In this document: piece by piece, positions 3,631-34,359 of the stretch | Numbering within the stretch: the stretch's first letter is position 1 | Layout: the number at the start of each line of letters is the position of its first letter | From: Pirellulales bacterium | GTDB lineage: Bacteria > Planctomycetota > Planctomycetia > Pirellulales > JALHPA01 | Direction: 5' to 3' | Length of the DNA stretch: 64,000 nt | NCBI GenBank assembly: GCA_049840575.1 | Contig: JASGKV010000024.1 | Coordinates: forward strand, 136,874-200,873 | Made by a program: the position numbers and the translations under genes | The notes under the pieces: model-generated | The model's database searches: none | Told to the model about the DNA's origin: nothing | Seen by the model: the letters and a program-made list of their open reading frames with translations, nothing else

Positions 3631-4143
3631 GGCTGCGATCCTTGTGAGTGATCGTCATGCGCGGGGCATGCGCGATCGATGTCTTAAGGAATCGCTTTGA
3701 GAATCCGTGTGGCGTCCGTTCGTCGAATCGAGCCGTTTTCGAATTCTAGGTCTTACGAATTCATCGCAAGGCGAACGAGAAAACTTATGAGGCAAACTGG
3801 AAAGGTCGTCACCGATTGGCCAGAGCGGCCGGGAGATAACCGTTCGTGAAGTATTGTCACGCTCTGCGTAAACAACGACCCGGAGGTCGTGGTTCGACTA
3901 GAGGATGCAACACAGATTCACGAGCGATCCGGGGTTCGGTGTAACGGATGAACTTCAACTTTGGCGATCACGTGACCGAATCCGGTCTCGGGGCCATTTC
4001 GTCTTATCCTAACTAGGCAACGCACGCTGTCAAGAAAATATTCTAAGAATTTTCCTGTTCTCTGTTTCAAACCGATTTTACCGGTTATTCCGGTAGAAAT
4101 CGAAGTTTCCCAACAAGCGGAAACGCCGTAAATCGTAGATAGA

Positions 4144-29205: not shown

Positions 29206-30351
29206 CTATTTCAAACGCTGCGTGTGTTTTAGCAATTCCGCGTCGAGTTCCTTCGGATCGCCGAAGGCGTCGCGGAACTCCTTCATCCGTTCCTCCGGTT
29301 CGTCCCACACGAACGGCGGTTTGTCGGCCAGTTTTTGCATATAGCCGACGTATTCCTTCGGTTTCATCTTCAACAGGAAGTGGTTCAACGCCCACGCTTC
29401 GGCGTACGCGTCGAGCGATTGCTTGGGCTGTACAAAACGTTTGTTGTCGACGACCAGCGTCGACAGCGACTCGCCCGGCCGTTGCGGGACGTACTCGCGG
29501 AAACGGTCCAAGCGCGAGCCGTTCGTCGCGCCGATCGTCGCCCAGGCGCGTTGCGTGCTAAGGTCCGGCGTTTCGAAAAACACGGCCAACCCTTCGGCGA
29601 CCCACAACGGAATATCGGCGAAGCGGCGATGCAGACCGCGGTTGTACGCGATTTGGTGCGTCGCTTCGTGCACGATCGTGGCGACCATCTGCGACGCCTC
29701 GGGCTGCGACAACATCGCGTTGATCTGTTGCGCGTTGCCGCGCTGATCGCCCGGGCGACGCAGCGCTTGTTGACCGGTCAGGTCGTACAACGTGATCCGA
29801 TTGGTCTGCAAACTGTAGAACGCCACGACTTGCCGGGCGTCGCCTTGCAGTTCGTTTTTCGTAAACGTCGAGTAATTTTCCACGCCGTCGAAGACCAACA
29901 CCATCAGCGGAAATTCGGGCTCCTTCAATTTGAAACCGAGCTTGGTCCAATAGTTCGAAAAGCCGGCGTACAAACGCTCCAACAACCCGCCCACCCATTG
30001 GGCGTAGGCCTTGCTGGTGTTGTGGACGATCACGTAATGCACGGTCGCATGGACGGTGAACCCGGCCGGCAGTTCGGCCTGCAATTGCTTGGCCGCTTCG
30101 GCCGGCTTCAGCGGCGTAAACGGGCGAGCGTCGGTCGTGTGTTTGACCAATTCCTCGGGCTGGATCGTCCAAATCCGGCCGTCGACGCCTTCGAGCATCA
30201 ATCCGCCGTCGGCGGCTTTCACCAGCAGCCGCGCGTTCAACGTCCGCTTCTCGCCGCCGCGCTGGTACTCGACGACGTCGAGCGCACTCGCGCAACGGGC
30301 AAGCCCGGCGAGCAATAGCGTGACACAAAGACAACGGAGCACGAACGACAC
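29206..30351 (-). CDS. DUF1570-domain secreted protein (HExxH-containing)
   Basis: GTG ~30351 (VSFVLRCLCVTLLLAGLARCASA signal). ...MVATIVHEATHQIAYNRGLHRRFADIPLWVAEGLAVFFE..., the core pattern of DUF1570 (family call from memory). Confidence 0.55.
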   Translation of the reverse strand: MSFVLRCLCVTLLLAGLARCASALDVVEYQRGGEKRTLNARLLVKAADGGLMLEGVDGRIWTIQPEELVKHTTDARPFTPLKPAEAAKQLQAELPAGFTVHATVHYVIVHNTSKAYAQWVGGLLERLYAGFSNYWTKLGFKLKEPEFPLMVLVFDGVENYSTFTKNELQGDARQVVAFYSLQTNRITLYDLTGQQALRRPGDQRGNAQQINAMLSQPEASQMVATIVHEATHQIAYNRGLHRRFADIPLWVAEGLAVFFETPDLSTQRAWATIGATNGSRLDRFREYVPQRPGESLSTLVVDNKRFVQPKQSLDAYAEAWALNHFLLKMKPKEYVGYMQKLADKPPFVWDEPEERMKEFRDAFGDPKELDAELLKHTQRLK

Positions 30352-30536
30352 GGGGAAATCCTGGAAAACCGAATGGCGGCGACTGGTTTTATCGTAATCG
30401 GGACGGGGACGAGCGGAAAATACGGAATTCGAGTCAACGGGCGACCACAGGACGCGGTGACTCCGAATGATTCGCGTGTTTTTCCTTATTTCTCCGAGCC
30501 ACACGATCTTTCGCCAAACCACCCGGTCTCACCGAT

Positions 30537-30960
30537 TTCACTGTACGAGCGTTACGAGCGAAATGAGCGTAACGATCGACATGATTTTTTCACTTCGCGA
30601 AAGGCCCCTCTCGGGAGCGTCCCTACCTAACTTCACTGCACGAGCGTTACGAGCGTTACGATCACAAGCGACGCGAGTGTTTTTTTGATCCAGCCGCCGG
30701 CGTTCGTCTGCGGTTCGCCCACATCGCTAAAACGCCCCATTTTGAATTCGCGAGCGTTACGAGCGTTGCGCACGTTACGAGCGATCGGAAATTCGTTTTC
30801 ACGACGAAGCGACGCATGCACCTCGCGATGCGGGGCGATCGAACGGTCGCCGATCGTCCACCCCATTGCCGGATGTTCGGCGAGCCCGGCTCGACGCGGC
30901 TTACCTATCTTCACTTTGCGAGCGAAACGCGCAGTTGCGACCAAGTGTGTCGCGTGGTTT
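30537..30960 (+). repeat. cluster of four degenerate direct repeats containing a tandem 9-mer (ACGAGCGTT)2-4
   Basis: Units at 30537 (ttcactgtACGAGCGTTACGAGCGaaatgagcgtaacg...T6), 30632 (ttcactgcACGAGCGTTACGAGCGTTACGatc...T7), 30747 (ttcgcGAGCGTTACGAGCGTTgcgcACGTTACGAGCGat...T4) and 30910 (ttcactttgcgagcgaaacgcgc...T5). Units 2 and 4 are preceded by cctacctaac / cttacctatc. Lies in a ~940-bp stretch with no convincing ORF. Confidence 0.5.
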
Positions 30961-31300
30961 TTCCCAAAACGAGGGACGTCGGTCTCCTGGGTGACTGCGA
31001 TCGATCGTCCACTCTTAGAAACTCAGGGGACTAACGTCCCCCGCTCGGGAAGATTCGTGGAGAACGCTTCGCATTCCGACGAAAACCCCCGCGACGTTAT
31101 TATATACGCACGTACACTCGCGCGTCAAGGCTATTTCGCAAGAATTTTCTACTCAAAACGTCGTGTCTTGCGCGTCCCCCAGTCACGCCTTTTCCGTCGG
31201 CCAGGGCGTGGCAGCGCGGTGTTTCGTTAAAGCAACGGACGGTTCGGAGACTTCGGGGAGGAAGCGTCGGCCCTCCGGTTTCGCTCGGCGCGCCGGCCGA

Positions 31301-32701
31301 TTAATAGACGTCCAAGCCGCTCAGTTTTTCTTCCACCTGATCGGCTTGCCACGCCACCGCGCCGACGACTTGCGTCACGGCCAGCGGGTTGAGCATATCG
31401 GCCGGCAGGTTGGCTTGAATCACCAAGCTTTCGGACTCGCCCAGTTTGGCCACGGCGAACGCGCCGTAGACCATCTTGCCGTTGAAGCGGAGCAGCGTCA
31501 GCGCGTTCTTTTCGGTGACCGGCCCGCAGGTCGAGCGGAACGACACGATGGCGTGCCCTTCTTCGTCTTTGCGATCCAGCAACGCGGTGACCTGCTGTTT
31601 GCGGAGCGTGCCGATCGGCACGGTCATCACGATTTCGTCGCCGTGATTTTGCAACGCATAGCCGGCCGCTTCGGCCGCTTGCGTCACGATCTCGGCCGGG
31701 TTGCCGGTTTCGCGGGCCAGTTGCCCGAACTCGGGCCGCTCCCCCTTTTTTCCGGCCGCCGCCGCGCCGGGATACAGCGGAGGGAGTCCGCCGCTTTGCC
31801 CCGGCGATTGCGGAAACGCGGATGGTTGCGGCGTGGGCATCGGACTGCCCGAGAGCGGGCCGGTGTTGCCGCCGCCAGCCATCATGCCCGGAATGGCCAT
31901 CCCCATGCCGAAGCCGACGCCCATCCCCAGCGAGCCGGGAACTTGGCCGCTTTCGGACATCTTGCCCAGGCTCTTGGCCGTTTGATAACGCATGTACGAA
32001 TTCAAATCGCCGATCACGCCCATCGAACCGCGCGCATCGATCGCCTTTTGCACTTCGTCGGGCGGCGTGATGGCGTTGATGAAGAGATCGACCAGTTCCA
32101 AACCGTACTTGCCGAAGTCCTCGGCCACCTTGGCCCGCACGCCGGACGCGATCTCGTCGTAGCGCGACGGGAGATCGAGCAAGCTGGGGTTCATCGCGCC
32201 GAGCAAGTCGGTCAGCTTGCTGACGATCACGTCTTTTTGAAACGAGACGATCTCGTCGGTCGTGTACTTGCCCTGGCTGCCGACCAGCGTGTTGAGCAGC
32301 AGCGCGGCGTCGACGACGCGGAACGAATACTTGCCGAACGAGCGCAAACGCACCGCGCCGAAATCCTTATCGCGAAACGCGATCGGCTGACGCGTGCCCC
32401 ATTTCTGATCGATGAACGTCTGCTTGCCGATGAAGTAGACGCAGGCCTGAAACGGCGATTTTTCCCAAGGAATCGTCAGGATCCGCGTGAGAAACGGGAC
32501 GTTTTGCGTGGTTAACGTGTGGCGGCCCGGGCCGAAGCTATCCATCGCCCGGCCGTCGCGGAAGAAGATCGCTTCCTGCGCCGAGCCGACGATCAACTGC
32601 GCACCGTACTTGATGTCGGCCGTCCCGTCGGCCGGGATGCGCTGCACCAGCGATTGATTCGCTTCGTCGTGATATTGAATGACTTCGAGTCGAAGGCCCA
32701 T
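31301..32701 (-). CDS. SPFH (band-7/stomatin-prohibitin-flotillin-HflK/C) domain protein
   Basis: 466 aa with ATG 32701. N-terminal SPFH-like region (IVGSAQEAIFFRDGRAMDSFGPGRHTLTTQNVPFL...). Gly/Met/Pro-rich linker. C-terminal domain of the COG4260-type architecture. Confidence 0.7.
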   Translation of the reverse strand: MGLRLEVIQYHDEANQSLVQRIPADGTADIKYGAQLIVGSAQEAIFFRDGRAMDSFGPGRHTLTTQNVPFLTRILTIPWEKSPFQACVYFIGKQTFIDQKWGTRQPIAFRDKDFGAVRLRSFGKYSFRVVDAALLLNTLVGSQGKYTTDEIVSFQKDVIVSKLTDLLGAMNPSLLDLPSRYDEIASGVRAKVAEDFGKYGLELVDLFINAITPPDEVQKAIDARGSMGVIGDLNSYMRYQTAKSLGKMSESGQVPGSLGMGVGFGMGMAIPGMMAGGGNTGPLSGSPMPTPQPSAFPQSPGQSGGLPPLYPGAAAAGKKGERPEFGQLARETGNPAEIVTQAAEAAGYALQNHGDEIVMTVPIGTLRKQQVTALLDRKDEEGHAIVSFRSTCGPVTEKNALTLLRFNGKMVYGAFAVAKLGESESLVIQANLPADMLNPLAVTQVVGAVAWQADQVEEKLSGLDVY

Positions 32702-32757
32702 GGTCAGGTTTTCGGGTTCAGGGTTCAGGTTTCAGGGTTCGGGGTTCGGGGTTCGGG
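32702..32757 (-). repeat. eight tandem heptamers (coding-strand CCYGAAC-like) immediately 5' of the SPFH-gene ATG
   Basis: Plus strand 32702-32757: ggtcagg ttttcgg gttcagg gttcagg tttcagg gttcggg gttcggg gttcggg, then atg (reverse complement of the start codon). Confidence 0.7.
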
Positions 32758-32795
32758 ATGTGCTCGGCGGACCGGGGCATGAATACTCGATTCGG

Positions 32796-32867
32796 AACAG
32801 AAGGAAACGAAGAAATCGAAGATCGAGTCCGAGGAAAAACTCTTCGCTTCCTTCGTTTCCTTCTGTT
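32796..32867. repeat. 17-bp perfect inverted repeat (hairpin-capable) in the SPFH-gene upstream region; third copy at 32958-32976
   Basis: aacagaaggaaacgaag (32796-32812) pairs with cttcgtttccttctgtt (32851-32867), with a 38-nt loop. gaacagaaggaaacgaagg recurs at 32958-32976. A degenerate reverse-complement copy cttccttcgttatcttccgtt lies at ~33048. Confidence 0.6.
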
Positions 32868-33085
32868 TAAGTTTTTGCAATGAGTCTTCGCCGATGAGGG
32901 CGAAAAGACTTCGACGATCCGTTGATTGAGGTTGGCCGACTTGAGCGAAGGGAATGTGAACAGAAGGAAACGAAGGTAAGGAAGAACTGCGATTCCGTCG
33001 TCACGCTTCTCAGTGACCTTCGCGATCTCCTGTTCATTCGCATCTTCCGAGCTTCCTTCGTTATCTTCCGTTCAAGTTTCTCGAT

Positions 33086-33664
33086 TCAGTCTTCGCCGCG
33101 GAGGATCGCGTCGCGGTGGTTCCAGTTCTTCTCCAGGTCGTCGCACGACTTCAGCAAACGCATGGCGGCCGCCTCGGGCTCGGTCGTGCCGGACGCGAGC
33201 TTTTCCAGATCGACGGTGAATTCCTCGACGTGCGTTTGCAGGCCGATGTCGAAATCGTAGATGCGGTCGAGTCGCCGTTCGTCGACTTGCACTACGTCGA
33301 AGAACGCGCTGTAACCTTGCATCGCGCCGCGGATCTTGCCGATCAGTTTATCGACGCGGCCGCGCACGCGATCGAACGACGGCAGCGCGTCGAGCCGGCC
33401 GGCGTCGGCCAGGCCGCGCGTCAGATCGTCGATGCCGCTCTTGGCCGCTTGCAACCGTTTGACCAGCGACTCGCGTACGAGCGCGTCGCTCGCGCGACGG
33501 TCTTCGACGGCCCAATAGCCCGCGAAGCCGGGGATTGTCCGCAGCAACGTTTCGACTTGCCCGCGTTGGCGAAGATGTTCGGCAGGTTCCGGCACGACGG
33601 CGACTCCCACGAAATACGATGCAAGAACACGTCTTCCCGGCTCTTGCCTTATAATATCAATCAC
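33086..33664 (-). CDS. hypothetical protein
   Basis: 192-aa ORF with coding-like composition. No recognised motifs. Lies upstream of and co-directional with the SPFH gene. Confidence 0.4.
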   Translation of the reverse strand: MIDIIRQEPGRRVLASYFVGVAVVPEPAEHLRQRGQVETLLRTIPGFAGYWAVEDRRASDALVRESLVKRLQAAKSGIDDLTRGLADAGRLDALPSFDRVRGRVDKLIGKIRGAMQGYSAFFDVVQVDERRLDRIYDFDIGLQTHVEEFTVDLEKLASGTTEPEAAAMRLLKSCDDLEKNWNHRDAILRGED

Positions 33665-33714
33665 GCCGGGCGTTCGCGAGTGAATTGCCGAGCCACTCGA
33701 TCGCGGGACGAAGC

Positions 33715-34359
33715 ATGCGCACCGAACCGATCACGCAGGATGAAAGCCTCGAGGACGCCGACATCGCGCACAGCGCGTCGCAAGGCGACGCGTCATCTCG
33801 CACGAACTTTCGTTCGTTCTTTCCGCTGCTCGCCTACTTGTCGATCTACCCCGTGCTGACCGGGTATTGGGTCGAAGGTTGGATCCAGCGAACGTTCACG
33901 CCGACGCAAGCGGTCTTCGTGAAAGCCGAGTTGTATTTGCCGGCCGTCGCGCTGCTCTCGATGAGCTTGTTACGCCTGACGCGCGAACGACGCTTGAGTT
34001 CGGATATCGCGTTCGAGCAAGCTTGTCGCAGGCTTCAAGGCGGCCCGTATCGTTACGTCGCGATCGCCGTCGCGGCCTTTTCGGCGTACATCGTCGGGAT
34101 TATGTCGGCACGGCTCGGTTTTCGAGACTTCGACGGCGCATATCGACCGCACTTTGAGGGCGATCCCTTCGAGCCGATCGCCTTGTGGATCGGCGCGGCG
34201 TTCGTCGTGGTCATGCTCGCGTTGACGCGACTCGTCGAAGGCTTCATGCGGCCGCTCGACGCGCCGCGTTGCCCCGCATGCCGCACCGAACTTTTCGCAC
34301 GACAGGCGACGGACGAATGCCCCGCATGCGGAGAGCGAGTTCGATGCGATAGCGAATAA
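33715..34359 (+). CDS. hypothetical membrane protein with C-terminal zinc-ribbon
   Basis: ATG 33715. Predicted TM segments (FFPLLAYLSIYPVLTGYWV, LYLPAVALLSMSLL, YVAIAVAAFSAYIVGIM, IALWIGAAFVVVMLAL). C-terminal CPACRTEL...CPACGERV. Confidence 0.45.
   Translation: MRTEPITQDESLEDADIAHSASQGDASSRTNFRSFFPLLAYLSIYPVLTGYWVEGWIQRTFTPTQAVFVKAELYLPAVALLSMSLLRLTRERRLSSDIAFEQACRRLQGGPYRYVAIAVAAFSAYIVGIMSARLGFRDFDGAYRPHFEGDPFEPIALWIGAAFVVVMLALTRLVEGFMRPLDAPRCPACRTELFARQATDECPACGERVRCDSE

Follow-up and report, generated by a model that had tools for sequence, protein, structure and literature searches.

A tandem array of eight heptamers abuts the start codon of an SPFH-domain gene in the 64-kb window studied here, a stretch of 64,000 nucleotides from a Pirellulales bacterium. 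The reading that we favour, with moderate confidence, is that this tract is an intergenic heptamer SSR of the STRR-like, G-rich kind, made by slippage, which gives SPFH an open leader free of a Shine-Dalgarno (SD) sequence and does not act as a rapid switch. The array would be transcribed as a 5' leader, initiation at SPFH would be SD-independent and the effect of the array on expression, if any, would be passive.

On the minus strand, positions 32757 to 32702 were read directly as CCCGAAC three times, CCTGAAA, CCTGAAC twice, CCGAAAA and CCTGACC, followed by the ATG at 32701; on the plus strand, positions 32702-32757 are GGTCAGG, TTTTCGG, GTTCAGG twice, TTTCAGG and GTTCGGG three times. The eight units stand head-to-tail and in register with a 7-nt period over 56 nt, and when compared with GTTCRGG five are exact, two carry one mismatch and one carries two. 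The longest perfect run consists of three CCCGAAC units (23 nt), the remaining units being variants. TRF reported positions 32714-32754 as a period-7 repeat of 5.9 copies with 91% matches, which together with the direct reading confirms the eight tandem heptamers that the first-pass annotation had placed next to the SPFH ATG. The G-rich strand of the array is the plus strand, the template (non-coding) strand for SPFH, and the ORFs on both sides are co-directional.

Table 1 Features at and upstream of the SPFH gene in the 64-kb window.
Feature	Position	Strand	Basis or remark
SPFH / Band_7_1 gene, 466 aa	31301..32701	-	Pfam PF13421, 1e-58
SPFH ATG, adjoining the array	32699..32701	-	sequence reading and homologue N-termini
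Heptamer tandem array, 8 units	32702..32757	-	direct reading, TRF, pattern search, lag scan
Canonical G-quadruplex motif (G3+ N1-7, four tracts), GGGTTCGGGGTTCGGGGTTCGGG	32735..32757	+ (template for SPFH)	regex, ViennaRNA
Unique 38-nt stretch between hairpin and array	32758..32795	-	sequence reading
Hairpin, 27-nt arms, 93% complementary, built of 9-mers GAAGGAAAC	32796..32867	.	repeat search, folding
Tandem duplication of ~205 bp, two copies 80-86% identical	32846..33104	.	repeat search and sequence reading
Partner gene, 192 aa, no Pfam family	33086..33664	-	co-directional with SPFH

Within the 64-kb window this was the only period-7 array found by TRF, and also the sole array of at least 3 copies in a lag scan covering periods 4 to 15. 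The 14-mer CCYGAACCCYGAAC matched the window nine times with up to two mismatches, against 2.28 matches expected (0 of 100 shuffles reached nine); the three exact matches and the others with no more than one mismatch, five in all, lay inside the array. A pattern search of the window found no second CCYGAAC array elsewhere, and pattern and repeat searches found no inverted copy of the CCYGAAC unit nearby.

The ATG at 32701 is the true start of SPFH. Around 115 of 120 homologues share the start residue of the protein of the window and begin with M[GA]xRLEV, residue 28 is where the Pfam Band_7_1 match sets in (profile position 9), and sequence reading places an in-frame TGA 10 codons 5' of the ATG, the intervening codons including none of ATG, GTG or TTG. 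A start further upstream, which would extend the N-terminus, is ruled out by this in-frame TGA, by the lack of a start codon between it and the ATG and by the common N-terminus of the homologues. Because the start codon is secure, the array truly covers positions -1 to -56 relative to the SPFH ATG; the earlier placement of the tract at the ribosome-binding position of a correctly called gene is therefore upheld. The protein is 100% identical to one annotated 'MAG: Pirellulales bacterium', the next homologue showing 66% protein identity, and 3592 homologues were found with E<=1e-20. The gene thus belongs to a widely conserved type with thousands of homologues and is not a surface, virulence, restriction-modification or contingency gene.

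In order to place the array among its relatives, we used a comparison set of 80 loci (468 kb) with SPFH orthologues, taken from GTDB species representatives that all belong to Planctomycetota. The lag spectrum of arrays with at least 3 copies contained 16 arrays at lag 7, 12 at lag 6 and 7 at lag 4, and none at lags 5, 8, 9, 10 or 11 in these 468 kb. Relative to the neighbouring periods 5 and 8-11, the excess of period 7 in planctomycete loci is an over-representation at the level of the lineage. All 16 lag-7 arrays lay outside called genes, intergenic regions being defined with a self-trained ORF caller. Strict arrays were present in 6 of 68 SPFH-upstream regions versus 2 of 157 other intergenic regions (Fisher p=0.01, a value which ignores the shared ancestry of the loci), and array-bearing loci occurred in 9 of 42 clusters (75% protein identity), interspersed with array-free relatives.

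Many of the orthologous SPFH spacers contain tandem heptamers whose units differ between lineages: CCCGACA/CCTGACA (CCYGACA) in L008, GAATGCT (equivalent to GCTGAAT) in L011, a perfect CTGACAA repeated 8.6 times in L014, CTGACAA plus GCTGAAA in L022, CTCAACT in L027, CCCCAAT in L062, CCCTAAT in L052 and TAGTGGA in both L034 and L075. No array is present here in L001-L003, the closest relatives of the window in the set (62-65% identity), and SPFH expression in general therefore does not require one. Several of the arrays at the orthologous position have a CTGA core in common, which may reflect common descent or seeding at an upstream TGA stop codon, as in L011 and L014. In L011, L014, L211 and L212 the array opens with the TGA stop of the partner gene as part of its sequence, which suggests that it was seeded there.

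The 192-aa partner gene lies on the same strand and immediately 5' of SPFH in 55 of 74 orthologous planctomycete loci and, because it is kept co-directional upstream in so many loci, it probably forms an operon with SPFH. The pair represents a natural series, in which the spacer repeatedly bears an array of differing sequence, length and distance to the ATG, with or without an SD. This series could be used to tell SD-free unstructured leaders from G-quadruplex elements or from the lack of any role.

We then considered the tract as RNA. The last 60 nt before the ATG are C/A-rich and G-poor on the sense strand (G8 C27 A20 T5; C 45%, G 13%). None of AGGA, GGAG or GAGG occurs at -20..-4 of the SPFH ATG, in agreement with the first-pass statement that no SD is present. 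A 4-nt SD core was found at -20..-4 in 53 of 75 SPFH orthologues, compared with an 11% background, and is absent in the window; the comparison thus shows that the array has taken the place of the usual SD-containing SPFH leader. Folded alone, the sense strand of the array has an MFE of 0.0 kcal/mol. In the fold of the 135-nt leader (z=+0.67 vs shuffles) the array is essentially unpaired, and in the centroid structure it lies in an entirely open loop of ~64 nt. In the MFE structure, GACC-AU-GGGC at the start codon pairs with GCCC/GGUC located 5' of the array, no better than in shuffles. Among the orthologues, leaders from -80 to +40 that bear arrays near the ATG had a median ensemble energy of -21.0 kcal/mol versus -31.1 kcal/mol for array-free ones (p=0.0014), and that of the window was the weakest-folding of the array-bearing set (-16.7 kcal/mol). 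The opening energy of its start region is low (rank 10 of 75), and the difference in this energy between array-bearing and other orthologues was not significant (p=0.38). As RNA, the array would therefore be an open C/A-rich leader and, because it is G-poor and has neither predicted structure nor an SD, SPFH initiation is most likely SD-independent. TGA occurs in units 4, 5, 6 and 8 of the array, so that none of the three sense frames stays open through the last 30 nt before the ATG; the TGA-bearing units would halt ribosomes coming from upstream just before the ATG.

A rather improbable alternative is that such a leader is not passive, and that a single-strand RNA-binding factor on C-rich, G-poor heptads recruits or blocks ribosomes or causes early termination. 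Candidates would be ribosomal protein S1, a cold-shock protein or Rho, for which the tract would be a rut-like loading site. C-rich, G-poor, unstructured RNA resembles rut or S1 substrates, and the ~60 nt in front of SPFH have this character. There is also a parallel in the TAACTGA direct repeats of marine Beggiatoaceae, some Cyanobacteria and Bacteroidetes described by MacGregor in 2015, which are found in 2-6 copies and 169 sets per genome, upstream of diverse genes, and overlap the expected RBS in regions of which only ~10% have an SD; the readers suggested for them are S1, Csp or CsrA (PMC4679880). Like these repeats, the array of the window is forward-oriented over the expected RBS, has no SD and (with one G per unit) shares the CTGA core in its CCTGAAC units, a core common to several orthologous-position arrays. 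It differs from them in its unit, CCYGAAC, in having eight units and in being the one array visible in 64 kb. However, the wide differences in unit sequence between lineages argue against a sequence-specific reader, no binding protein can be identified from sequence, and the shared CTGA may stem from common descent or stop-codon seeding.

A broader reading, to which we likewise give little weight, would make start-codon-proximal heptamer arrays a cross-phylum cis-element replacing the SD, read by an S1/Csp-like factor or by terminating and re-initiating ribosomes, and kept by selection upstream of SPFH across Pirellulales despite turnover of the units. The units of such an element may often be CTGA-type, C-rich on the mRNA and supply stops in three frames, and the element may cover the arrays seen in Planctomycetota, Beggiatoaceae, Cyanobacteria and Bacteroidetes.

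The spacer between partner gene and SPFH is 384 nt long in the window, orthologous loci typically having 40-250 nt. This unusual length is due to the ~205-bp tandem duplication, in which the last codons (3' end) of the partner gene were copied along with a hairpin element, so that a pseudo-3'-end remains in the spacer. The SPFH-proximal hairpin folds with a stem of ~26 pairs in both the MFE and the centroid structure, and may serve termination or stabilisation of the transcript of the upstream gene. A scan of 31200 to 33800, upstream of and across the SPFH start, found no sigma-70-like promoter, and no Rfam family was found at 30400-33800, where only two sub-threshold chance matches were obtained. 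One could propose that the SPFH transcript is leaderless or starts a few nt from the ATG, the array being promoter or spacer DNA with a spacing role or none. The absence of an SD and of a detectable sigma-70-like promoter upstream would fit this, as would the strong hairpin 40 nt upstream, which could terminate the transcript of the upstream gene. Nevertheless, we consider this unlikely, since nothing like -10/-35 hexamers is present within the array and since the arrays of L011 and L014 fill the 70-90 nt gap between the stop codon of the partner gene and an SD, and must therefore be transcribed within the operon.

The hairpin element is present in two copies (32796-32867 and 32957-33074), each with arms of tandem 9-mers GAAGGAAAC / GTTTCCTTC, a motif with no other occurrence in the window. 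A 51-aa ORF (32725..32880, minus strand) which runs from the hairpin into the array was rejected as a uORF, its TTG start lying inside the hairpin and nothing else backing it.

Changes in array length were followed at the orthologous position in the L008 and L011 lineages, comparing lengths from anchor to anchor; the assemblies of the L008 lineage came from ENA samples, NCBI genome records and a Logan run. Five L008-lineage assemblies with an identical SPFH protein and conserved flanks share an identical 70-nt inter-anchor stretch, which a partial sixth assembly (L206) matches over its 61 upstream nt. At ~93% CDS nucleotide identity, the stretch measures 92 nt in three assemblies and 113 nt in a fourth; for the L011 lineage, inter-anchor lengths are 50, 29 and 29 nt. 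The length differences in both lineages are 22, 21 and 21 nt (~3 units), counted as whole heptamers, and orthologous-position arrays therefore do expand and contract, as the first-pass annotation had anticipated for arrays of this kind. Such differences were seen only at ~93-95% CDS nucleotide identity. Resizing thus takes place as strains or species diverge, and the consensus sequences of near-identical genomes show stable arrays. By analogy with these lineages, in which the class is seen to resize, the array of the window would have originated by replication slippage strongly favouring 7-nt units in planctomycete genomes, and its resizing would go on. Length changes of +/-7n would build up between lineages and may shift expression slowly, with no rapid on/off or rheostat role.

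The same L008 lineage contains a further assembly, L205, with a CDS 99.7% identical and a strongly rearranged spacer whose units include CTGAACC, the unit of the window itself. In L201-L210 and in L008 itself (isolate BS150m-G36), a Pirellulaceae lineage, the region 100-230 nt upstream of SPFH is a divergent recG-SPFH spacer in which a distal G-rich GGTGTCR array and a proximal C-rich CCYGACA array form an inverted pair. In L213, a relative of L011, the GCTGAAT array (~330-460) is split by a palindromic insertion of ~124 nt, ggatgtgaatctttcaa...ttgaaagattcacatcc, which is MITE-like.

The first-pass annotation had proposed a phase- or rheostat-variable gene, that is, a contingency locus at which high-rate slipped-strand mispairing within the population changes the length or structure of the leader and thereby switches or grades SPFH. 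The tract does lie between any possible promoter and the ATG, orthologous-position arrays do differ by 21-22 nt between related strains, and there is a precedent for grading by a transcribed 5'-UTR heptamer SSR in Haemophilus influenzae, where the (ATCTTTC)n repeats of hmw1A and hmw2A are transcribed and their length is inversely related to expression (PMC12721329). The array resembles these tracts as a heptamer SSR upstream of a start codon. However, natural hmw tracts have at least 11 perfect units, which pair with a G-rich arm into a 5'-UTR hairpin cleaved by RNase III, and precede a surface adhesin gene (PMC12721329); the array of the window has no more than three identical units in a row, is unpaired in the folds, has no complementary G-rich arm with which to form such a hairpin, and precedes a conserved scaffold gene and neither an adhesin nor another surface or virulence gene. 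A low slippage rate is to be expected because no more than three identical units are consecutive, and analogous arrays are identical among the five identical-protein, conserved-flank assemblies, the partial sixth agreeing as far as it goes. Phase variation was also judged unlikely for the analogous G-rich heptamers by Rehm et al. (PMC4692102). We therefore regard a contingency locus as unlikely, and from the imperfection of the array and the stability of its analogues in near-identical genomes we infer that it would not be a switch. Since heptamer arrays recur in the non-coding DNA of planctomycete loci, the tract is better seen as part of a genome-wide repeat class than as a dedicated switch, and a repeat adjoining a start codon should not be annotated as phase-variable by default.

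Another possibility is that the array acts as DNA, through a G-quadruplex (G4) of GGGTTCR units on the template strand or an i-motif on the C strand which forms on duplex opening and affects SPFH transcription or local replication. The plus strand of the array has at least four G3+ tracts, and hence predicted G4 capacity: the motif listed in Table 1 gave -9.6 kcal/mol in ViennaRNA with G-quadruplex energies versus -0.3 kcal/mol without them. The array also occupies the position preferred by the Xanthomonas and Nostoc heptamers that form G4 in vitro (PMC4692102). Nevertheless, the single G4 motif in the 64-kb window is at chance level (1.09 expected), so G4 motifs are not enriched, and many orthologous-position arrays, such as those of GCTGAAT, CTGACAA and CTCAACT, have no G or C tracts, so that G4 capacity is not the shared feature. 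Trends in orientation were not significant either: high-GC metagenome contigs with CCYGAAC followed the rule of Rehm et al. without reaching significance (14 vs 9; 16 vs 7), and in the orthologues a C/G bias between arrays near to and far from the ATG was not significant, with too few cases. Even the published G4 heptamers have no demonstrated function. We think a DNA-structure element quite improbable, and we retain the reading of the array as an SD-free leader derived from a general repeat class.

Knowledge of tandem heptamers between bacterial genes goes back to the cyanobacterial STRR of 1990, reportedly the work of Mazel et al., and such repeats are still without an assigned function. STRR are 7-bp intergenic tandem repeats which also occur between co-transcribed genes, some of them forming hairpins, and roles in transcript stability or translational coupling have been proposed (PMC2670836). 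The array of the window is likewise a 7-bp intergenic tandem repeat, and hairpins formed through inverted arrays were seen in the L008 lineage; on the other hand, its units and phylum differ and it has no inverted partner.

The closest parallel in geometry is with the repeats described by Rehm et al. in 2015, GGGAATC in Xanthomonas and GGGGA(C/T)T in Nostoc PCC 7120, which are over-represented in non-coding DNA (PMC4692102). They are preferably found between aligned ORFs, at 0-50 bp from the start of the ORF that follows, and their G-rich strand is the non-coding one; their lengths vary among close relatives, they form G4 in vitro and the genes nearby are ordinary (PMC4692102). The function of these heptamers is described as unknown (PMC4692102). 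The array of the window has just the same geometry, with 7-nt units of one G-tract each, intergenic between co-directional ORFs, 0-50 bp upstream of one of them, and predicted to be G4-capable. In addition, orthologous planctomycete arrays differ in length and sequence between close relatives, and the gene is an ordinary one. It is unlike the Xanthomonas and Nostoc repeats in its unit (GGGTTCR), in its phylum (Planctomycetota), in being imperfect, in having eight units where four are preferred, in being the one array of its unit in the 64 kb examined, and in that planctomycete loci share the period and not the G-richness. The array extends the intergenic heptamer class to Planctomycetota. Rehm et al. 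cite Mrazek 2007 for a general excess of heptamers and for the suggestion that this excess mirrors the footprint of the polymerase (PMC4692102). Huang and Mrazek found G-patterns over-represented in the planctomycete Isosphaera (PMC4060949), and beyond this remark our literature search found no paper on heptamer arrays in Planctomycetes. A more distant system is the Vibrio cholerae ctxAB promoter, in which AT-rich TTTTGAT heptads recruit transcriptional activators and their copy number affects expression (bioRxiv 10.1101/2021.05.14.444153). The likeness lies in tandem heptads upstream of a gene; unlike these AT-rich promoter heptads, the array of the window shows no sign of a DNA-binding regulator.

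The CCYGAAC unit is common in nature, since a metagenome scan for three exact units matched at least 120 contigs, with arrays of up to ~37 units among the matches listed. The many low-GC matches mixing CCCTGAA and CCCTAAA units were left out of the context analysis, as they may be eukaryotic telomere-like DNA. Seven metagenome contigs of GC 0.60-0.68 (L093, L108, L113, L119, L121, L123 and L198) carry a nearly fixed four-unit element, RCTGAACCCTGAACCCCGAACCCTGAACCCTC, in differing flanks. Its four units supply the four G-tracts needed for G4, and echo the four-unit preference reported for Xanthomonas. Among the orthologous loci, L074, a planctomycete MAG, has CCCTAAA repeated 9.6 times, the plant-type telomere unit, in intergenic DNA just downstream of SPFH (4001-4067).

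Downstream of SPFH in the window, ~170 nt past its stop codon, a near-consensus sigma-70 promoter (TTGACG-18-TATAAT, 11/12) is present at 31099-31128 on the minus strand. It is followed by ~570 nt of non-coding DNA before the minus-strand DUF1570 gene (29206..30522), and within that stretch, at 30537-30784, lie three arrays of 9-mers CGCTCGTAA, with nine matches versus 1.9 expected. The stretch, which has no Rfam match, may be a long leader or a non-coding RNA.
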